Part shown: one piece after another, positions 25,852 through 42,788 of the stretch
How positions within the stretch are numbered: the first letter of the stretch is position 1
Layout: each line of letters opens with the position of its first letter
Source: Escherichia coli
GTDB lineage: Bacteria; Pseudomonadota; Gammaproteobacteria; Enterobacterales; Enterobacteriaceae
Length of the DNA: 64,000 nt
Direction: 5' to 3' (one strand)
Assembly (NCBI RefSeq): GCF_044647545.1
Contig: NZ_CP172818.1
The notes under the pieces: generated by a model
Seen by the model: only the letters and a program-made list of their open reading frames with translations
What the model was told of the DNA's origin: nothing
Databases searched by the model: none
Program-made: the position numbers and the translations under genes

Positions 25852-25926
25852 AGCACCTCAGAATTAAAAAGGGCGAGGTTTCCCTCACCCTGTCGTATCC
25901 GTCAAAACGGTATACAGAATAACACA

Positions 25927-27232: not shown

Positions 27233-27309
<77 letters not shown>

Positions 27310-27342: not shown

Positions 27343-27419
<77 letters not shown>

Positions 27420-27452: not shown

Positions 27453-27529
<77 letters not shown>

Positions 27530-30500
27530 ATTATCTGAATACCCAAGTTTTCACAATCGTTTTTTTTATTTAAATCTTTCCTGAATCACAAAGTTTTTTA
27601 TCTCCCTTCCTCGAATAATCAATTACACTAAATTATCCCTTTCTGTATACTCAATCCCCGATATCCTTGTAATGATATTTTCATTACATCTAAATTCCCA
27701 ACGTTCAACTAAACACATCCACCCCAAAACATTTCTTCTTCAATCACCTAATAAACCCCTCATCCACAACTCCCCCCATTGATGATCAACACATCCATCA
27801 TCACAAATATTTATACTAATAAATCTCCACTCAAAAAAACAAAAAACAATGATGAATCGACTCATAAAATATCTTCAATTATACAAATGAATCCACTTTT
27901 CACAACTAATCTTTTTTCAAAACTAAAACTCAACATCAAAACAATAACCTTCCCATTTTTCCAATATCGTACCAACACAATACGTTTACCTTTAACCCAC
28001 CATCACTCACCCATACCATTTTCATCCATGATACACCGATATTTTCATCCCGAAATAATCCAATGATAAATTCCCAACCATTTGAATTAATCCCAACCAT
28101 TATTACAATAATACTATTCCTCCACGAAATCAATATTTCTATCCCCTCCCGAATCTCGATATTATTTTCACACCAACACAATAACTTCCCCTATAACAAT
28201 CTTCCCAACCCAAATAATCTCTAATCATATTCTATTTAACAATCCCACATTATTCTTAATAATAAATTAAAATTATTCTCTCTACAACCCAAAACACTCT
28301 AAAACACTACCAAACATTTTTATACACACTCACTTCAAAAACCACCCCAAAAATACTTACTGTATTTATATTTTAAATTATGAATTTCTTTAACCATCAC
28401 CCCTGATGATAAACCGAAACACACATAAATTTTTTCAATTCAAATCAACCCACCCATCACCAACAACCAAACAACATCCACACATATCTAAACTAAATTA
28501 TCCCCTCACTTTACGATTTCAACAATAAATCACAACTTACCAACATATATACTAAAAAATCAAATAATTACCCATTTTTTTCAACACATTCCCAATTTCC
28601 CTCTCACACTTTTGAAATAAAATAACAACATCTCTTCCCACATCCAATCCTGTACCCTCCTACCTAACAAAAAACGAATCCTACTCAAAATCCGATTTTC
28701 CAATAAACCGACTTACCAACACCAATAAAAACAACTTTTCCCTACAAATTTATACTTTAATTAAAACGAATCAAAATATCAATAACTCTCTACTTAATTC
28801 TTACATAAAATTTTAATAATATATCTTATTCATTTTTATTCTCCCTGATTAATATTTTTAATTACACTCACAAACCGTAACCCCATATATAATTTTTCTC
28901 ACCCACCATTCAAGAATACCCTCCCCCTCCGTTCCATAACATCCCCCCATAACCATTTCCTTCATGAATTAACACTTAAAATTCATCAAAAGATAACCAA
29001 TACAAACAATCTACCAAAAAAACAACATCACTCCTACATCAATTCAATATTTTATTCAATACTAATTGAATTAACAATATTCTTTAATGATTTACATCCC
29101 AATCTAACAATAAACAATTATATTCATACTATGGATTTACAAAACTATACGATATCTTCTAACTTATGATTAAAATTACTCATTAAATCATAAGATCTTA
29201 TCAAATTAAATTCATATCATTATACTACTACTTTTTCTTTTTTTATTTTAACCGATGTAACTACTCATTAAAAACAAAATCACTATGATTTCATCTAACA
29301 TAACAAATTATCCTTAACCACATTTTATATTCTTCTTCCACCAACTTCCTCGTTATGAGATTACATAATAACACCATCTCTTTTATCTTAAACAAATCCC
29401 ATTATACTACCCCCCTCATTTTTTATAATCAAAACTTCAAATATTCCCTATTTTTTACATCAAAAACATTAAACATTAAAAACAAATATTATCACACGAT
29501 CAATAATCTATTCTTTTCAATAATACATCACATCTATATTATCCATTCATTTTATCTTTTATATTTTATAAACCATTTACTACCATTCAATATTCACATT
29601 CAAACAGTACCTAAAATCTTTCCAAGTTTTCTTAATCCCTACACACTTCTTATCAAATCCATATCTAAATAAAATGTAATACATCTTTTACACCAAATCT
29701 CCCCAAAATCCCATTTACAATATTTCCTTCAAACAGTATTAAAAACATCCATCACATATCCATTATTATCCATATCCACCAACATGACTTTATACCGATA
29801 ATATTTATATTTTATCAATTTAATATAATTCCCCACTCTTTTTATTCTCCTCAATCAACCCATATCGATTTTAAACTAAAGATACCAATTATCCAGATTT
29901 AATATTCTCTTTACCACAATCCTTAACATCTCTCTCTTCACTCTATTTATCAACGTATATCCCTATACTATCCTCATACTTCACTACAATACTCTTCACC
30001 ACTCATCAGTTAAATTTAAAATACAACAACACAAAGTAATAAATAAAAAATACCACTTCGACACACACCTATTCAACTTTCTTCCACCAAACCCAAACTA
30101 ATAAATTGAATCAACCCATAAATCCCATCTTCACCCCATAACAAACACGAATCCATTCATAAATCATAAACAAACACATACTACAAATAAAAAAAATCCA
30201 ACTCCTACCCCCAATAATGATTAACACCCCAAATAACAATCTTTATACTTTTCTTTTACATACATCGATACACCACCCACCACCAACATACTAATCATCA
30301 TTTCTTTCCATTTTCCCCCAAACCACAATACCATTCTCTACACCCATAAAATCATCCATAATACTCTCCCCCAATCACACCTAAACCGACGTAAACAAAA
30401 ATCACCAGATTTTAACCAAAAAACTCACTCCAACTCATAAAAAATAACCGAACAACCGAATATATCATCCAATGACATGAAAATTAAAAACCCAATAAAA

Positions 30501-31641
30501 GAATGATCAACCAAACCATCATCACAATCATTAATAACACAACCTATAAAAACTAATATCTAACTAAATTAACGTCTTTTTAACACCATAATAACCCACA
30601 ACAATTCCTCTAAACCTTATTTAACTGATCCCAAATATTTATCGACATTTACACACCAATAATCTCTTTTAAATAAAATTCTCCCAGACACCCATAAAAC
30701 AATAAAGAAAAACATATTTATCCTCTTTTTTTTAATAACCAAGAATTTACCAAACAAACATAATAACAAACAAACAAACCAAAACAATAAACAATATTTT
30801 TATTATGAAACCAAAATAATTAATCCATATCATCATCTAAACATCCACCTACATCACACATACAACAACAAGAAATAAACCTCATCTAAAAAAAATCCAC
30901 TTTCTTTTATTTCATATAAATTTATATATAAAATTAATACTACGAATAAAATATATTTTCTCTAAATACATATTTAAAACAACAATACTCAATTTATGAA
31001 TTAAAATTCTTTCTCAAAAATCATAATCACAATATTCTTTTTTTTATACATAAAACAAAAAAAATAATCATCATAACTTAAATTAAATAATCTCACTTAT
31101 AAAACCGATAACTTTATTTTTTAATAATAAAAAGCATAACAATGAATTCAATTATTTAAAACAAATAAAATTCATCAAATTAAACTAAATTATAATAACA
31201 CAATATTTACAATTTATCAAAAAAAATTATTATTTTACCAAAAAATAAAACAAAAAACAAAAATTTAATTTTTCAAATACACAAACAACAACAAAACAAC
31301 AAATACATAATAATATAACGGGTGTTTTTTTGTTTCTTGTCTCCCATAAAAGAGCCAGCCATCTCAGACGACATTCCATATTTTTTTTTAACCACCCACC
31401 CAGAAATATAACCTCTCCATTCACACTTACACAATTATTTCATACTTATATCAATACTCCCAAAAAAAACAACACTCAAATAATAATACTCAAACAATAA
31501 CATACAAAATAACAACAAACAAACGAATTTTTAATTAAAAACTTTATTTTCAACGACATTCAAAATCCACATCATCACAAAACATCTAATATTCATAAAT
31601 TTATCTATCAACGAAATATAAATTCATAATAAATAAAAACA
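27530..31641. other. About 4.1-kb non-native, apparently non-coding block with extreme G-depletion on the + strand (A/C/T-rich, AT-rich); origin and function unknown
   Basis: By eye, most 60-nt lines contain 0-3 G. No ORF longer than about 105 codons in any frame, and those present translate to low-complexity peptides. No obvious long direct or inverted repeats, no integrase, no duplication of the tRNA 3' end. Fills the whole gap between metV and the amiC stop, where K-12 has only tens of bp (from memory). Confidence 0.85.
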
Positions 31642-32895
31642 TTATCCCCTTCTCGCCAGCGTCGCCCCATCGGCAAAATACGCTTTAATTCCCGCAAGAA
31701 TAGACTCCGCAACTTCCTGCTGGAAAGTCGCCGTTTTCAGTTTACGCTCTTCCTCAACGTTACTGATAAACGCCGTTTCGACCAGAATGGAGGGAATATC
31801 TGGTGCCTTTAGTACGGCAAACCCAGCCTGTTCAACTTGATTTTTATGCAGCTTGTTGATTTTACCGAGCTTATTCAGCACCGCTTTACCAAACTTAAGG
31901 CTGTCGGCAATGGTCAGCGACTGCACCATATCGAACATAGTGTGGTCGACATAGCGGTCACCGCTTTTGCTTACGCCACCAATCAAGTCCGAGGCGTTCT
32001 GGGTTTGTGCCAGATATTTTGCCGCAGTACTGGTTGCACCTTTGGTTGAGAGCGCAAACACAGAGGAACCGCTCGGCTGACGACTGGTAAAGGCGTCGGC
32101 ATGGATAGAGACAAACAGGTCAGCACGCTGTTTCTGGGCTTTTGCTACGCGCACTTGCAACGGAATGAAGATGTCTTCATTGCGCGTCATGTACACCTTC
32201 ATATTGCCCTCTTTCTCGATCAGAGAGCGCAGACGGCGAGCTATTTGCAATACCACGTCTTTTTCGCGCGTTTTGTATTTCCCCACCGCACCGGAGTCTT
32301 CGCCACCGTGGCCAGGGTCAAGCATAATGACAATCGGACGATCCCGCCCAGCTTTACCCGGTTGTGGACCACTTTGTGCTGGCGGCACCTGCTTTTCGAG
32401 GTCGCCTTTGTTGTAATCCTCCAGCAGCGCCAGCAGCGGGTCCTGCATGTCCTGAGCATTGGCAGGATAGAGATCCATCACCAGACGCTCTTTAAACCCG
32501 GCGACCGGCGCAAGGGCAAACAGCTGCGGTTTTACGTTTTGCTTTAATTCAAAAACCATGCGTACGGTTTGCGGGTCAAATTGCCCGACGCGCGCCGACT
32601 TGATGAACGGGTCGTCTGCACGAATTTGTGCCGCCATCCCCTTGAGTACCGAGTTCAGGTTTACATCTTCGATATCCACCACCACGCGTTCCGGGTTACT
32701 CAACGCGAACTGCTTATATTTCAGCTGACGATTTGATTCTACCGTCACGCGGGTGTAGCTGGACGCAGGCCAGACGCGCACCGCCACGACCTGGCTGACC
32801 GCAGCCAGACTGACCTGACTTACGCTCAATAGCCACATGGCACCCGCGCCTTGCAGTAAACGACGACGGCTGATTGCAGTGTTGGATCCTGACAT
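31642..32895 (-). CDS. amiC: N-acetylmuramoyl-L-alanine amidase AmiC
   Basis: ORF-track ORF 31642-32985; the 417-aa product starts [23 protein letters not shown] (Tat twin-arginine signal) at 32895. Confidence 0.9.
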
Positions 32896-33126
32896 GCCTC
32901 TCCCGAGCAAAAGAAATCTAAGCTGTGTAACAAGTAAACGACTAATTTGACCGAAAACTTTAGCGAAAGACGCATAATCTGTCATCTATAAAACGGTAAA
33001 CATTCTTTTTATATTCACGGTATTACTGATAAAAAACTCGCTCCCGCATAAAATTTACACTTGCACCCTGCGAAAAAACAGAATAAAAATACAATAATTT
33101 CGAATAATCATGCAAAGAGGTGTGCC

Positions 33127-34458
33127 GTGGTAAAGGAACGTAAAACCGAGCTGGTCGAGGGATTCCGCCATTCGGTTCCCTATATCAATACCCACCGGGG
33201 AAAAACGTTTGTCATCATGCTCGGCGGTGAAGCCATTGAGCATGAGAATTTCTCCAGTATCGTTAATGATATCGGGTTGTTGCACAGCCTCGGCATCCGT
33301 CTGGTGGTGGTCTATGGCGCACGTCCGCAGATCGACGCAAATCTGGCTGCACATCACCACGAACCGCTGTATCACAAGAATATACGTGTGACCGACGCCC
33401 AAACGCTGGAACTGGTGAAGCAGGCTGCGGGAACATTGCAACTGGATATTACTGCTCGCCTGTCGATGAGTCTCAATAACACACCGCTGCAGGGCGCGCA
33501 TATCAACGTCGTCAGTGGTAATTTTATTATTGCCCAGCCGCTGGGCGTCGATGACGGCGTGGATTACTGTCATAGCGGGCGTATCCGGCGGATTGATGAA
33601 GACGCGATCCATCGTCAACTGGACAGCGGTGCAATAGTGCTAATGGGGCCGGTCGCTGTTTCGGTCACTGGCGAGAGCTTTAATCTGACCTCGGAAGAGA
33701 TTGCCACTCAACTGGCCATCAAACTGAAAGCTGAAAAAATGATTGGTTTTTGCTCTTCCCAGGGCGTCACTAATGACGACGGTGATATTGTCTCCGAACT
33801 TTTCCCTAACGAAGCGCAAGCACGGGTAGAAGCCCAGGAAGAGAAAGGCGATTACAACTCCGGTACGGTGCGCTTTTTGCGTGGCGCAGTGAAAGCCTGC
33901 CGCAGCGGCGTGCGTCGCTGTCATTTAATCAGTTATCAGGAAGATGGCGCGCTGTTGCAAGAGTTGTTCTCACGCGACGGTATCGGTACGCAGATTGTGA
34001 TGGAAAGCGCCGAGCAGATTCGTCGCGCAACAATCAACGATATTGGCGGTATTCTGGAGTTGATTCGCCCGCTGGAGCAACAAGGTATTCTGGTACGCCG
34101 TTCTCGCGAGCAGCTGGAGATGGAAATCGACAAATTCACCATTATTCAGCGCGATAACACGACTATTGCCTGCGCCGCGCTCTATCCGTTCCCGGAAGAG
34201 AAGATTGGGGAAATGGCCTGTGTGGCAGTTCACCCGGATTACCGCAGTTCATCACGGGGCGAGGTTCTGCTGGAACGCATTGCCGCTCAGGCGAAGCAGA
34301 GCGGCTTAAGCAAATTGTTTGTGCTGACCACGCGCAGTATTCACTGGTTCCAGGAACGTGGATTTACCCCAGTGGATATTGATTTACTGCCCGAGAGCAA
34401 AAAGCAGTTGTACAACTACCAGCGTAAATCCAAAGTGTTGATGGCGGATTTGGGGTAA
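33127..34458 (+). CDS. argA: N-acetylglutamate synthase
   Basis: ORF-track ORF 33061-34458; the 443-aa form uses GTG at 33127 ([25 protein letters not shown]); N-terminal amino-acid kinase domain and C-terminal GNAT domain. Confidence 0.9.
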
Positions 34459-34539: not shown

Positions 34540-36366
34540 TTATTCCCGCGAACTAAACAACGCCGCCAGACCACTGCGCCGCTCGGTGCGCGTGGCAATT
34601 GCCGCACTTAAAATGCGCTCATCGGCATACAGCGACAGACGGCGACGCGCGCGGGTCACTGCGGTGTAAACCAGCTCTCGCGTTACTACCGGCGTGCGTT
34701 GACTCGGTAAAATCAACGCCGCATGGTCGAACTCCGATCCCTGCGATTTATGTACCGTCATCGCCCACGTCGTTTCGTGCTCTGGCAGGCGACTCGGTTG
34801 CACAGACTTAATATTGCCGTCCGGCATCGCAAACCAGACGCGCGTCCCCTGCCCACGATCCAGCGCAATACCGATATCGCCATTAAACAACCCAAGCGCG
34901 CTGTCATTACGGGCAATCATCACCGGTCGGCCTTCGTACCAACGAGAGTGCGGATGACGATGAATTTTGCGCTTCTGTTGCATAAACTGCTCAATTCGCT
35001 CATTCAGTCCAGCCACGCCAAACGGCCCTTCCCGCAGGGCGCACAAAAGCTGGTACTCATTGAACGCCTGAATGATTAAATCCGGCTCGGCACGCGCTTG
35101 CAGCAGATCCAGATAACGTCCGTAACCCGCAAGAGCTTCCTCAAGCATCGCAATATAATCTTCGCCGCTCTGTAAAAGCCGTTTTTCGATATCAGAAAAA
35201 TCCTGCTGAAAAACGGTTTTCACTGCCGTTTTATCACCACGGTTGATCGCCGCAGCTAACTGACCAATGCCAGAATCGCTGCCGAAACGATAGCTTTTTT
35301 GCAACAGGCAGAGACTGTCGCGCAAAGATGCCGCTTCTGTGCCAGTTCCTGCCGGAACGTGAGTTCCCGTCAGGCGGCTTAGCTGCCCGGCACGCTCGGC
35401 GGTAAAGCCGGCATTGGCATAAGCACAAATATCGCCCAGCACAGCCCCAGCCTCAACCGAGGCCAGTTGATCACGATCGCCGAGAAAGATCACTCGCGCA
35501 TGATCGGGCAAGGCGTCTATCAGTCTCGACATCATCGGCAGATCGATCATTGACGCTTCATCTACCACCAGCACATCAAGATGCAGCGGGTTACCGGCAT
35601 GATGGCGTAAACGCTGGCTACCTGGCTGCGCGCCCAGCAATCGGTGCAAAGTACTGGCATCTTCCGGAATGCGTTTCTTTTGTTCATCGGTCAGCGGTAA
35701 CTGGCGCAAAGCCTTGCCGAGAGATTCGGTTAAGCGCGCGGCAGCTTTACCCGTTGGTGCAGCCAGACGGATACGGCAGCGTTCGCCGTCGGCCATTTGA
35801 ATTAACGCTGCCAGCAACTTCGCTACGGTGGTCGTTTTACCGGTGCCAGGGCCGCCGGAAATCACTGAGATCCGCCGCGTCAGCGCCACTGCCGCCGCAA
35901 CTTTTTGCCAGTTAATTTCATCGCTTACTGGAAAAAGTTTGTCCAGGGTTTGCGCCAGTAGTGCTTCATCAACCTCAATGGCATGATTCACTTCGTTGAA
36001 AAAGCGTGCCACTGTGCGCTCGTTACACCACATGCGATTCAAATAAAGACGATCGCCACAGAGGATCATCGGCGTTGGTTCATCTCCCCGGCTGACCGCT
36101 TGTGAAGCCAGCAAGCATTCTTCCCAATTTTGTAGCTCACCGATTTCACTGACACAGGTCGCCAACAGCGGATGCGATGCCTCGTTATTTTCCAGTCGTG
36201 AAAGCGGCAAACAAACGTGTCCCTCTCCGGCATCATGACTTAACAGTGCCGCCGCGAGGGTGACGGCAGGATGTTCATCTCCCGCCACGGTCAGGGCAAA
36301 CTGCACGTCCAGCGGGCGTAGCTGTTTGTGCTCCACAGCTTCCAGTAATTGCTTTTGCAATTTCAT
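34540..36366 (-). CDS. recD: Exodeoxyribonuclease V alpha subunit
   Basis: 608-aa ORF with Walker A motif [10 protein letters not shown]; the start codon overlaps the recB stop (TAATG). Confidence 0.92.
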
Positions 36367-39300
36367 TACGCCTCCTCCAGGGTCATACCGGCAAACATCT
36401 CATCCATCAGGTCAATCAACCCGGCGTTGGGTCGGGTCGCGTAGATCCCTTGTTGCGGATGTTCTTTATCAACGCCACGCAGGAACAGATAAATAACGCC
36501 GCCAAAGTGGCGCTCATAGTCGTAATCAGCAATGCGATGGCGCAGATAACGGTGCAGCGCCAGGGTATAAAGCTGATATTGCAGATCATAGCGGTGCGCC
36601 TGCATTGCCGCTGCCATAGCCTGTTGGGTGTAAGCCGAACTGTCTTCACCCAGCCAGTTGGATTTATAGTCGAGCAGGTAATAACGCCCTTCGTGGCGGA
36701 ACACCAGGTCGATAAAGCCTTTTAACATGCCACGTACCTGCATGAACTCCAGCGGCGGGCAGCCAGCGGATAGCGGGTCAAACTGGCGAATTAGTGCATC
36801 AAGCTGACTGGCGATAAGCGGTTCACTAATCGGCAGGTAAAACTCCATCTCCACCTGTTTATCGCGATCGGAAAGCTGATTCAGGCTAACACCCGTTTCA
36901 TTGAGAGGTGCCTGGAGGACAGCCGTGATCCACTCAGTCAACACCGGTTCCCACTGCGGTTCAAAGCCGCCGAGCTCCAGTTTTTCCTGTACCCAGTTCG
37001 GGTCAACCGGCTGGGTAAAATCGAGGTCTTCAAACAAACTGTGCAAGAATGTCCCCGGTGACGCACCGCGCGGGAACTGATGCGGTGTTAACGTCGGTTC
37101 TTCAACGACGCTGACCACGCCTGCGGCATCAACATCCAACCGTGGCATCAGATCCTGAGCGATACCGTGACCACGCTGCTGCAAACCGGAGTAGCTGGTG
37201 ACACGCCAGTTATCGCCGGGCAATCGTTGTAGCGTCCTCGCATTCAGTTCTGCAGTTAATGCATCATTAACCTGCCAGGGCTGGTTATCACCAGTTTGTG
37301 CCGTTTGCCAGGCAATATCATCATCGCATAACGCTTCAATACAGGTGCGAAGCCCTGCCGCATCTTGCGGTTCCCCTTTTTGCAGCAAACGCCCGAGCGC
37401 ACTTTGGTGGACGTCGGTATCACCTTTTTTATCGCCACGACGGCGCACCAGCGGTGCAACGCCGAGACTGCAATGCCAAACCGAACGCGTCAGCGCCACG
37501 TAAAGCAAACGCAGATCTTCCGCCAGACGTTCGGCCTCCGCGAGGTCGACGCTTTCTGGCGCAGCATTAAGATCCAGAACAGCCTCAAACGAGTGGCGAT
37601 CGTGATAAAACGCCTGATCCTGGACGCGGAAATTGGTGATAAACGGCAGCCAGACCAATGGATATTCCAGCCCTTTCGATTTGTGGATCGTGACAATCTG
37701 CACGAGATGTTTATCACTTTCGAGACGCATTTGTTGGCTGGAGGCATTACTGTCTGGCTCGAGGATATGTTGCGATAACCAGCGTACCAGCGCATGTTCA
37801 CTTTCCAGCTGCGTGCCGGCTTCTTGTAGCAATTCGCTGATATGCAAGATATCGGTAAGACGCCGCTCACCGCCTGCTGTTGCCAGCAAGTTTTCTGCAA
37901 TGTTACGCGCCGACATCAGCGCCCGCAGCATCGGCATAACGCCACGTTTGCGCCAGATTTGCCGATAACCATCGAACTCTTCGACTACCGCATCCCACGC
38001 ATGTTCGTCATTATTCAGCGTTTCAATATCCAGCGCATTCAGCCCCATCATTGACGTTGCCAGCGCACTGCGCAGGGTGTTCTCACGTTCGGGTGTCATC
38101 ACCGCCTGCAACAGCCAAAGCATCTCCTGTGCTTCCAGAGTTTCAAAAACACTGTCGCGGTTCGAAAGGTAAACGGAAGGGATTTCCAGCAGCGTTAAGG
38201 CATCGCGCACCTGAGCGGCCTCCTGGCGGCTGCGCACCAGCACACTGATGTCCGAAGCACGCACCGGACGCGCGTCGTCGCCGTTCATCAGCAACGCTTC
38301 GCCCCGCTGTCCGGCTTGTAGCCAGTCGCGGATTTGCGCAGCACATACCTGCGCCATGGTACTTTGATAGTCGCCAACGCCGCAGCTTTCGCCTTCCATC
38401 AGCCACATTTTCATCGCAGGCTGCGTTTCACCTTTAAACACAAAACGTAACGCCTGATTTTTCCCGGCTGATTTCACTGGAATAAAAGGAATTTCGCGAA
38501 ACATGAACGCGTCATCAGTCTGACTGAAAAGTTTGTTAACGCTGTTCACCATTCCCGGTGCGGAACGCCAGTTGGTGTCTAAGGTGTAGTGGGCGTGAAC
38601 TTCGCTACGCGCCTTCATATAAGTGAAGATATCCGCACCCCGGAATGCATAAATGGCCTGTTTCGGGTCGCCAATCAGCAACAATGCGGTTTCCGGCTGA
38701 TGGTGCCAGATACGGCGAAAAATTCGGTACTGCTGGGGGTCGGTATCCTGAAATTCATCGATCATTGCCACCGGGAATCGCGTACGGATCGCCGCTGCCA
38801 ATACCTCGCCGCTTTCACTACGCAGCGCGGAATCGAGCCGACTTAACATGTCATCAAAACCCAATTCGCCACGGCGGCGTTTTTCACGCGCTACTGTTTC
38901 GCGGATCTCAGCTAATGCGCGAGTGATCACCAGATCGCGGATCGACAATGGTTCTGCAAGCAGTTGATCGATCGCCTCAAACAGTGGATGTCGCGGGGTT
39001 TCCCCCCGGCTTTCGTGCGATCTTCTAAGAAACGCTGAGAGAATTTTTCCAGCGACTCTGGCAACTGATAGCTGTTGGTCTCTTCTTCTGCCCAGGCGCT
39101 GATCTTGTCGATCCATTTAGCCTGATTGCTACGGTTAAACTTGCGTCGATCAATACCAGAAGATTCGATCAGCGCATCCAGTTCACCCACCGCGTCGCGC
39201 CACTGCTGTTTTACCGTATCAATACGCGCCACAATTTGCGCGTGGCGGGAAGCCAGCGTTTCATCATCGGGCGGCGGCGCTTTGATAACCGGCGCTTCGC

Positions 39301-39907
39301 CTTGCAGATAACGATTAATATCGCGCAGTAACGCCTGCGGCCCTTTCCAGGTTTCAAAGACGACCTGGGCAATTTCACGCGGCAGCGGGTAGCAGTGGCG
39401 ACGCCAGAAATCGGCGCAGGCCTGGTAACGTAGCAGAGACTCATCTTCAATCAGCTGCTGCTCAAACAGCATGCCGGATTCAAAGGCATTCAGGTTGAGC
39501 ATGCGCTGGCAAAAACCGTGAATAGTAAAGACTGCCGCTTCATCCATCTGCCGTTCGGCTAACAACAACCACTGCGCGGCTTGCGCTTTATCGTCGATCT
39601 CTTCCAGCAGGCGTTTGTACAGTGGATTGTCGGTGGTTTCACGCAGACAGGCGATGCGCAACTCGTGGATATTGCTACGGATACGACCGCGCAATTCTGC
39701 CGTGGCAGCCTCGGTAAAGGTGACCACCAGCAGTTCTTCAACGGTCAGCGGGCGGGGAAAGGCGGCAGAACCGCCTAGTCCAAGTAACAGGCGCAAATAG
39801 AGCGCCGCAATCGTAAAGGTTTTGCCTGTGCCGGCAGAGGCTTCAATCAGGCGCTCGCCCTGTAAGGGCAAGCGCAAAGGATCTAGTGTCTCGGCGACAT
39901 CACTCAT
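36366..39907 (-). pseudogene. recB: Exodeoxyribonuclease V beta subunit RecB, disrupted by a -1 frameshift (or a homopolymer sequencing error)
   Basis: Two overlapping same-strand ORFs, 38927-39916 (329 aa, RecB N-terminus with Walker A ASAGTGKTFT) and 36366-39116 (916 aa, rest of RecB). The frames switch at a run of 6 C at 39000-39005 (+ strand); 7 would give ...RTKAGGETPRHPLFEAIDQLL... in one frame. Total span is 3542 bp against 3543 bp expected for 1180 aa plus stop. Confidence 0.85.
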
Positions 39908-42788
39908 TCTTTTCACTCATCAGGGGCATTGTTTGCTGCAACGCGCTGACGTTCTCCCACACTTTCCAGCCTTCAGGATGCACATATTCGGCTTTCCCGT
40001 TCTGGCTGCCGGAAATCTGCGACAGAATAGCCATACCTTGCGGCTCGACCACCGCCTGATGGAAGAAATCAGCAAGTTTTTGCGGCGTCAGCAGTTTTAT
40101 CTGGGCCACGATTTTATCACGCGAATCGAAGCGCATATTGCCGCGATCGAAATCTTTACTTAACTTCGATGCTTCTTCGCCGAGCGTTTGCGGTGCCTGC
40201 AGCATCTGGGTAATTACCGCCTGCTGGATTTGCGCAAACTCTTCTGGCTTCATCGCCCGCAGTTTCGCTTCTGCGGTCGGGAAAAACGCCTTGTAACGCT
40301 CCCACAAGAATGAAGGCTGTTTATCATTGCTTTGCAACAGGAAGCCCATGCCCCACTGACGCCCCACGCTCATTGGAAACGCAAACACGGCATAGCCCAA
40401 CTGTTCTTCGGTACGCAACTGATTGTAGAACCACGGCTGTACGATCTGCCCCAACAGAGAACTATACGCTGAACTGGTGTATTCATCGTAGCCAGTCGGT
40501 ACAAATACCGCTGCCAGTGCGGAGTCGGTGCTGTTACCGGCTTTTTCAAAGATGACGGATTGTTTTTTATCGACCACGACATCTTTGTTACGACACCACT
40601 CCGAACCATCAGCGCCCAACTGTTTTTGCACATCGCGTGCCAGCGTTGTTGCCTGGGCCTCGGTCATGTTGCCGATAACCATAAACTCTGGTCGAGCCCC
40701 TGATTTTAAGGCGTCGCGATAGGCCAGAACTTCTTTCAAAGTAATGGAGGGCAAAATTTTGCGCCGTTCATCTCGCGAGAAGTATGGTACTTGCGAGAGC
40801 ATCTGCGCGGGCATAATCGCCTGCTCGAACGCTTTGCCCTTTTCTGCAGAATCCATCATCTGGTTATACCAGGACTTCGCCTGCTCAAGCTGATCTTCCG
40901 TAGCGGTATAGCTAAAGTACCCCTCGAGCAATGCCTGGAACAGCTGCGGCAGGCGCTGGGTGTAACCATTGGCATTAACCATAAGGCCGTTGTTAGCATT
41001 GGTGGAAAAACTTATGCCACCAACCGACGCCTGGTTGCTTAACTGATCAAGCGCCAGCCCTGCGAGATAATCATTGAGCGCAAACATCACCTGATTGCGG
41101 GCGCTATCCATGGCTTTTGGATTACGCAAAATCAGGCTGACATCAGCTTTGGGTTCGCTGGAAAAATAACGGCTTGGCGCATACACCACACGCAGATTCG
41201 ACTCATCAACAATCAGCTCTGGATGGTCATATTTCTTCTCTGACTTAATCAGCGAGAAATCGTCAGGAATATAGGGGTTAAGCTCTGGCAAAGAGAGCGC
41301 AATGTCGGCGGCTTTTTTCTGCCAGTCAGCGAAAGTTTGTGCGCTAATTTTATCGACCTGATACGGCGCATCGACAAAGTAAGCCGTTTTGTTGTGCGGC
41401 TCTTTCGGGCTGATATACCAGATACGCGCATTCTGCGGCGTCATCATCGCCAGGCGTTCTTTTACTGCTTTAGCGTCGTACCGATCGGCAATATTGACTG
41501 CATCCAGCGTATGCTCAACAGGAACGCGAATCATGGTATCTGCCAGCCATTCGACGTAATCCATATCACGGGTGATTGACGGATAACGGAAGTCGATATC
41601 CAGCACATTCGCCAGTTCATCGAAGTATTGTTTATCAATCCCTTTTTCGCGTAACAGATTGAGGTAGCTAAAAATGGCCGCCACAACCTGATCGCGATTC
41701 GCCAGACCTTTATCGGTTAAAGACGCAGAGATCGCTAATACGCCGCTGTTGCCGTTGACGATAGGATCGGAATTGGCGCTAATACCCTCAACTAATCCCT
41801 GCTTTTGCAGCCAGTCAGAAAGTGTACCTGGGCTGCGATTACCAATCAGATAGGTAATCAATTCATCCGTTTTACTACGGAACTTCGCTGAATTGTTATC
41901 GATGCGAAACTCAACGCGCAGAACTTTACGCGGCAACGCCGGGACGTAATGAATGATAATGCCCTTTTGCGCGTCGGTGACTACCGGCACGGTGATTTCC
42001 GGTTTTTTGCTCTCTTTGTTCGGCACGCGACCAAAGGTGTCCGCCGCCATTTTCGCCAACTCCGGCAACGGTTTATTGCTGTAAATAACCGCCTTCATCA
42101 GATTGGCGGAATAGTACTTCTCGTGGAAATCTTTCAGCGCCTGCTGTACCGGATTACCTGGTTTGTCGCTTAAAGTTTCGAGGTTACCACCAGAAAACTT
42201 TGAACCGGGGTGTGCCGGGTTAATGGTTTCTGCGCTGACCTGTGCCATGCGCATCCCGTCACGCGTACGCGCCATGGTTAATTCGGCATTCACTGCATTA
42301 CGTTCACGTTCGGCGTATTTCTTGTCGAGCAAGGGTTCTGCAATAGCATCGGCCAGGCGGTCTACCGCACCGGGTAAGGCATCGTTCTCAACTTCCAGAT
42401 AGAAAGCCGTGCGATACGGTGCCGTGCTGGCATTGTGACTGCCACCGTGCATTTTGAGATATTCGGCCAGACTGTCAGCCTGCGGGTACTTTTTCGACCC
42501 CATCAGACTCATGTGTTCAAGGTAATGCGCCAGCCCCTGATACGCCTCGGGATCTTCCAGCGACCCAACGGGCACCACCAGCGCCGAGAGCGATTTAACC
42601 GCCTGCGGATCAGAAACCAGCAAGACCACCATACCGTTATCCAGACGTATAGCCTGATACTGGCGGTTATCTTTATCACTTTTACGGATGGTTTCCTGAA
42701 TCGGCTGCCATCCCGTTTCTGCCTGACTTAAGGGTGCCCAAAGGGCAACAAACAACAATAATGCTTTGAACCAGATGCTGCGGGGCAT
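39900..42788 (-). CDS. ptrA: Protease III (pitrilysin), periplasmic M16 zinc metalloprotease
   Basis: 962-aa ORF with signal peptide and inverted zinc-binding motif HYLEH; recognised as PtrA; 3' end overlaps the recB start by 8 nt. Confidence 0.92.
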   Translation of the reverse strand: MPRSIWFKALLLFVALWAPLSQAETGWQPIQETIRKSDKDNRQYQAIRLDNGMVVLLVSDPQAVKSLSALVVPVGSLEDPEAYQGLAHYLEHMSLMGSKKYPQADSLAEYLKMHGGSHNASTAPYRTAFYLEVENDALPGAVDRLADAIAEPLLDKKYAERERNAVNAELTMARTRDGMRMAQVSAETINPAHPGSKFSGGNLETLSDKPGNPVQQALKDFHEKYYSANLMKAVIYSNKPLPELAKMAADTFGRVPNKESKKPEITVPVVTDAQKGIIIHYVPALPRKVLRVEFRIDNNSAKFRSKTDELITYLIGNRSPGTLSDWLQKQGLVEGISANSDPIVNGNSGVLAISASLTDKGLANRDQVVAAIFSYLNLLREKGIDKQYFDELANVLDIDFRYPSITRDMDYVEWLADTMIRVPVEHTLDAVNIADRYDAKAVKERLAMMTPQNARIWYISPKEPHNKTAYFVDAPYQVDKISAQTFADWQKKAADIALSLPELNPYIPDDFSLIKSEKKYDHPELIVDESNLRVVYAPSRYFSSEPKADVSLILRNPKAMDSARNQVMFALNDYLAGLALDQLSNQASVGGISFSTNANNGLMVNANGYTQRLPQLFQALLEGYFSYTATEDQLEQAKSWYNQMMDSAEKGKAFEQAIMPAQMLSQVPYFSRDERRKILPSITLKEVLAYRDALKSGARPEFMVIGNMTEAQATTLARDVQKQLGADGSEWCRNKDVVVDKKQSVIFEKAGNSTDSALAAVFVPTGYDEYTSSAYSSLLGQIVQPWFYNQLRTEEQLGYAVFAFPMSVGRQWGMGFLLQSNDKQPSFLWERYKAFFPTAEAKLRAMKPEEFAQIQQAVITQMLQAPQTLGEEASKLSKDFDRGNMRFDSRDKIVAQIKLLTPQKLADFFHQAVVEPQGMAILSQISGSQNGKAEYVHPEGWKVWENVSALQQTMPLMSEKNE

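Follow-up and report, generated by a model that had tools for sequence, protein, structure and literature searches.

The metV gene of Escherichia coli is a known integration hotspot for genomic islands (PMC7545054), a general statement that was the only result of our literature search on the metV-amiC island. Integrase-mediated islands at tRNA genes lie directly 3′ of the tRNA gene, at a recognised insertion site, and are identified by an integrase gene and by attL/attR direct repeats that duplicate the tRNA 3′ end. Deaminase- or bisulfite-type hypermutation, a second class of system to which the locus can be compared, depletes a single base on one strand over several kilobases. A third point of comparison is homologue-guided polishing of assemblies: Homopolish edits indels only, never mismatches, and assigns each position to a class (insert A, T, C or G, delete, or keep) from the counts of A/T/C/G matches and of deletions in related genomes (PMC8011154). 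The closest relative of the locus analyzed here is the metV-amiC PTS island of strains IMT16316, CFSAN061771, 536 and FDAARGOS_497, which sits at the same locus, with flanks identical to those of ST648 genomes, and contains 99.3% of the bases of our block in the same order. The block differs from it in that approximately 26% of the island bases are missing, five reading frames and a terminator are destroyed, and a patch of the spacer found in island-free strains is embedded within it.

The window, a stretch of 64,000 nt of E. coli DNA analyzed at its full length, carries the three tRNA-fMet genes of the metZWV operon of E. coli, identical to one another, and directly 3′ of them a block that is nearly devoid of G on the strand presented:

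27233..27309, plus strand: tRNA-fMet gene metZ (ARAGORN), same sequence in K-12 and ST648
27343..27419, plus strand: tRNA-fMet gene metW (ARAGORN)
27453..27529, plus strand: tRNA-fMet gene metV (ARAGORN), with its CCA end marking where, on the left, island-carrying and island-free E. coli begin to differ
27530..27544, plus strand: left border ATTATCTGAATACCC, closer to the island-free spacer over its first 14 nt (ATTATTGAACACCC) than to the start of the island; a K-12 BLAST match reaches 27544
27530..31641, no strand assigned: apparent corrupted copy of the 5,566-nt metV-amiC island, 4,112 nt long and altered almost only by deletions
31642..32895, minus strand: amiC, intact; the corrupted block ends on the right at its stop codon

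G makes up 2.7% of 27530-31641, beside 41.3% A, 31.3% T and 24.6% C, whereas both flanks have 24-25% G and roughly 25% of each base. GC skew across the block (27500 to 31500) lies between -0.7 and -0.85, and within the 64 kb a frequency below 10% for any base is seen only here. The longest ORF in the block encodes 105 aa, and the longest on its minus strand 81 aa. An earlier note, made from the letters of the window alone, had placed the onset of the G depletion at the 3′ CCA of metV, and this is confirmed: metV ends at 27529, the G content falls from approximately 25% to 2.7%, and the first lost bases come directly after 27530.

The same note had reported no direct repeat of the tRNA 3′ end at the right border, and our searches agree with it. 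With up to three mismatches allowed, the last 25 nt of the tRNA match only the three tRNA genes over the whole window, and no tRNA 10-mer is present in 27530-33500. In the intact locus L001, neither the last 25 nt nor the last 15 nt of the tRNA, again with up to three mismatches, occur outside the tRNA genes; a repeat search of the intact island returned no repeat of the tRNA 3′ end, and none of its five genes encodes a tyrosine or serine integrase. The locus therefore resembles integrase-mediated islands in its position, the block starting 1 nt past the CCA of metV, but differs from them in that its intact form, a 5.6-kb swap for a 73-nt spacer, has neither an integrase nor a duplicated tRNA 3′ end. 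Since both are missing even from intact copies, the metV-amiC island does not belong to the classical integrase-mediated elements but represents a metabolic operon that is polymorphic for presence/absence (replacement). The earlier argument against a conventional integrase-mediated island at the tRNA is thus upheld, whereas the biologically anomalous, G-depleted block that accompanied it is not, for reasons that emerge from comparison with the intact locus.

When the block was used as a megablast query on 5,426 complete E. coli genomes, 1,578 gave a single match each, at 76.5% identity and at the metV-amiC locus, over genes annotated as phosphoglycerate dehydrogenase, KpsF/GutQ isomerase, MalY/PatB protein and PTS EIIC. 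The intact island found at this position is 5,566 nt long, has a G+C content of 40% and carries five genes (198-526 aa), all on the minus strand, between metV and amiC. It is present in 1,689 of the 5,426 genomes, nearly always at full length and with 91.6-100% identity, and the predicted sequence of its intact left junction is ...CCAACACTTATGATGCTGATAAGCCGCAATGTGTTTCACAGATTGCGGTTTTTTTG. NCBIfam models assign the five products to the D-2-hydroxyacid/phosphoglycerate dehydrogenase family, to the SIS-domain KpsF/GutQ-like isomerases, to the PatB-family C-S lyases (with a score over the curated cut-off), to the MalX-like maltose/glucose PTS IIBC proteins and to the LicT/BglG-family antiterminators. 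These five genes make up a sugar-uptake (PTS) operon that lies on the opposite strand and is transcribed in the direction of metV.

Where the island otherwise sits, K-12 and other island-free strains carry a 73-nt metV-amiC spacer, which is present in 3,353 genomes. The island swaps out this spacer exactly, from 1 nt past the CCA to the amiC stop codon (L001 5957-11522; L003 2957-8522), and amiC itself ends in TAA where the island is carried and in TGA in K-12. Because its divergence among E. coli reaches 91.6% identity, the island appears to be an old polymorphism, not a recent insertion.

An alignment of the block and the intact island under a low gap cost has 4,081 identical columns, alongside 24 substitutions and 7 insertions, amounting to 99.4% identity over aligned columns, collinear at the same locus and between the same flanking genes. 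The island bases missing from it number 1,461 (879 G, 315 T, 227 C and 40 A), or 88% of the G, 20% of the T, 18% of the C and 2% of the A in the island; they have been lost one to a few at a time along its length, leaving the block 1,454 nt shorter. The longest common subsequence with the island takes in the 99.3% of the block already mentioned, and approximately 75% of shuffled versions. None of the five minus-strand frames is intact, and all five genes are destroyed:

27586..28323, minus strand: remnant of the D-2-hydroxyacid/phosphoglycerate dehydrogenase-family gene, reduced from 948 to 738 nt, no open frame
28378..28833, minus strand: remnant of the SIS-domain KpsF/GutQ-like sugar-phosphate isomerase gene, reduced from 597 to 456 nt
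28836..29752, minus strand: remnant of the PatB/MalY-family C-S lyase gene, reduced from 1,176 to 917 nt
29752..30910, minus strand: remnant of the MalX-like maltose/glucose PTS IIBC gene, reduced from 1,581 to 1,159 nt
30931..31453, minus strand: remnant of the LicT/BglG-family PRD antiterminator gene, reduced from 825 to 523 nt

Given this deletion spectrum and the extent of the common subsequence, the block is not a new element but the ordinary island minus approximately 1,460 single bases, for the most part G. The anomaly described in the earlier note dissolves accordingly: the block owes its composition to bases having been taken, one by one, out of a normal island of 40% G+C.

Several other accounts of the depletion were considered and rejected. 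A novel non-coding or G-less element is at odds with the 76.5% megablast match to a known island and with the subsequence test. Hypermutation of G to A, by a deaminase, by bisulfite or by a MutaT7-like system, shares with the block the depletion of a single base on one strand over several kilobases, but here the Gs have been deleted and not converted (only 2 G-to-A changes, against 879 G deletions), and length has not been preserved. A codon-aware or designed sequence was dismissed on the finding that neither codon phase nor coding status affects base loss, and homopolymer-driven loss on the finding that per-base retention is constant with run length.

The pattern of retention has further structure. 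The 107 Gs surviving in the block are strongly enriched in a pyrimidine-G-A-(A/T) (Y-G-A-W) context, with 46% of G retained in CGA, 27% in TGA and about 0-4% in AGN and GGN. Loss of T and C climbs from roughly 10% to 30-55% towards the right of the block (window ~30740-31500, L001 10157-11357), and in this same part the loss of A (<6%) and of G (~90%) is steady.

A rho-independent terminator is expected to combine a G+C-rich hairpin with a U-run directly after it and to be more stable than shuffled sequence. The window contains no such element downstream of metV. Its first 51 nt past the tRNA (27530-27580) fold at -1.7 kcal/mol (z -0.18) and its first 150 nt (27530-27679) at -6.8 kcal/mol (z +0.85), neither better than shuffled sequence; a terminator pattern scan of the window found nothing 3′ of metV, and a T8 run at 27560-27567 is all that remains of the signal:

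27541..27567, plus strand: remnant of the metZWV intrinsic terminator, stem Gs gone and T-run kept; intact, it reads AAGCCGCAAUGUGUUUCACAGAUUGCGG and then U7

For the window as given, folds and pattern scan alike thus support the earlier statement that a hairpin with a U-run is missing after metV. The intact allele, in contrast, passes the same test. Its hairpin and U7 lie 21-51 nt past the CCA, and the terminator region (L001 5957-6012) folds at -19.5 kcal/mol (z -4.22), a value matched by 0 of 200 shuffles; K-12 passes as well, its spacer carrying a different hairpin, also with U7, at -11.1 kcal/mol. The simple pattern scanner overlooks the hairpin of the intact allele. The window is without a metZWV terminator because the loss of G erased the stem of the intact hairpin, and the missing terminator is almost certainly a data artefact. 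The suggestion that termination of the tRNA operon is unclear does not survive this comparison, intact genomes carrying a strong hairpin and U7 terminator; judged from these folds, the true sequence would have a normal intrinsic terminator for metZWV directly past metV.

The remaining 59.9 kb of the window differ from ST648 strain IMT16316, in which the island is intact, by 0 mismatches and two 1-nt indels. The damage starts after 27530, and the last deletion lies 14 nt before the amiC stop codon, the final 14 nt containing no G. These limits are exactly those of the segment absent from island-free genomes. One stretch inside the block departs from the island altogether:

31316..31367, plus strand: patch of the island-free (K-12-type) metV-amiC spacer, 90.4% identical over 52 nt (E = 1e-8), with its Gs kept

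The sequence of this patch (TAACGGGTGTTTTTTTGTTTCT.GTCTCCCATAAAA...) includes the 3′ arm and T-run of the terminator of the island-free allele, and it overwrites the LicT-like gene remnant. In a global alignment of the spacer with the island, the spacer scatters under cheap gaps; local alignment of the spacer core alone is informative, and its best placement on the island (L001 11099-11128) is the position at which the patch is found. An artefact would be expected to confine differences to the allele-variable segment between perfect flanks and to place sequence of the other allele where it aligns best, and both are observed. An island-carrying chromosome has no source for the island-free spacer, and the position of the patch at the optimum of the aligner speaks for two alleles having been blended by computation.

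Outside the block, the two indels are the only differences from IMT16316 in the 59.9 kb. At window position 25880, in the tcdA-mltA intergenic region, one A is missing relative to IMT16316 (GGGCGAGGTTATCCCTCACCC vs GGGCGAGGTT-TCCCTCACCC). In recB (minus strand, window position 39001), a C7 run in the ST648 references is C6 here, splitting a product of 1,180 aa in IMT16316 into ORFs at 36366-39116 (916 aa) and 38927-39916 (329 aa). The C6 is either a real frameshift or a homopolymer error. Homopolymer frameshifts such as C7-to-C6 are an error typical of long-read assemblies, and we counted the recB frameshift, as an error of this type, in favor of an artefactual explanation of the block.

Because perfect flanks, limits that coincide with the allele-variable segment, an embedded spacer patch, independence from codon phase and homopolymer length, and an ordered subsequence produced almost exclusively by deletions are observed in combination, we consider it highly probable that the block is no DNA of a cell, and that the metV-amiC island of an ST648-like E. 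coli was damaged while the sequence record was being built. A G-depleted block running from the CCA without a terminator is not a real feature of this locus. Most likely, a consensus or polishing step would have set evidence from the island-free allele, taken perhaps from related guide genomes or from reads that were mixed or stemmed from a contaminant, against an island-carrying draft. At every column of the island the other allele would then have voted for a gap, a decision rule sensitive to the base would have discarded G for the most part, T and C to some extent and A hardly at all, and where the 73-nt spacer could be aligned to the island the bases of the other allele would have been written in instead.

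The software step behind the damage is one that we infer, and a polisher that edits indels only under the guidance of homologues, as Homopolish does, would fit it. The likeness lies in edits restricted to indels, in a target segment absent from other genomes of the species and in the insertion of the bases of another allele; the differences lie in the base hierarchy, the Y-G-A-W context and the rightward rise of T and C loss, which such polishing leaves unexplained, and our search retrieved no published description of this exact failure. Some observations speak against the explanation as a whole. The hierarchy of loss, with G far above T and C and these far above A, and the survival of Y-G-A-W do not derive from documented tool behavior, the context dependence matches no chemistry known to us either, and the close ST648 relatives all carry the island, where a polisher guided by the nearest homologues should meet no gaps.

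Damage during polishing or assembly has to be weighed against other origins of the block. It may have arisen as an edit in silico, whether deliberate or through an error in file or alignment processing (e.g. the consensus of a gapped alignment of two alleles), involving no sequencing chemistry. The exactness of the edges, the near independence of per-base loss from run length, codon phase and coding status, and the alternative allele at its best-alignment position all favor this view, as does the failure to find the sequence elsewhere: an exact 49-mer of the block has no match in metagenome contigs or GTDB genomes, and in the RefSeq complete E. coli set no match exceeds the 60-80% identity band. 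The strong dependence of G survival on context and the gradient of T and C loss nonetheless represent more structure than a simple random-deletion script would leave, and we regard such an edit as unlikely. Corruption in silico, deliberate or accidental, and a pipeline artefact are not distinguishable from one another, and the verdict is the same in either case, namely that the block is not real DNA. Somewhat different is the proposal that a gap was filled by a single uncorrected long read, or by one-strand reads with base-specific dropout, so that the flanks were polished and the island left raw. A one-strand origin fits the strand-asymmetric deletion profile (A 2% vs T 20%, G 88% vs C 18%), the drift of T and C loss along the block is in keeping with it, and the recB homopolymer error suggests long-read data. 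Raw long reads, however, have substitution and insertion rates comparable to their deletion rate, and the 24 substitutions and 7 insertions seen here against 1,461 deletions are unlike such error. The proposal also leaves unexplained the island-free spacer patch and the coincidence of the limits with the allele boundary, and a unique 5.5-kb island of 40% G+C is not expected to form an assembly gap. We rejected it on the error spectrum and the spacer patch, and hold it to be very unlikely.

The block could, finally, be genuine chromosomal DNA, in which a strand-specific process (deaminase hypermutation, error-prone copying or G-skipping lesion bypass) degraded the island, taking most guanines singly from one accessory segment and sparing the flanks. 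Although the depletion is indeed strand-specific and confined to one accessory segment, the near absence of G-to-A changes excludes deamination, and some 1,460 separate deletions in 5.5 kb would have had to accumulate beside 59.9 kb without a mismatch. The embedded island-free spacer cannot come from an island-carrying allele, and it sits at the optimum of the aligner. We know of no mechanism that deletes 88% of one base without substitutions, and we regard a chromosomal origin of the block as scarcely credible.

Read as damage to the sequence record, the block holds no new biology. The operon beneath it is a known, annotated accessory operon, and the finding is of use as an example for quality control: what looks like an exotic 4.1-kb non-coding island, skewed in composition and devoid of an att site, is a common operon in damaged form. 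Scans for islands or novelty based on composition will flag such regions, and in an annotation of the window as given, five genes and the metZWV terminator would go missing. Assemblies could be screened for damage of this kind by its signature, in which deletions alone turn a known allele into an ordered subsequence of itself and the limits coincide with a presence/absence polymorphism.
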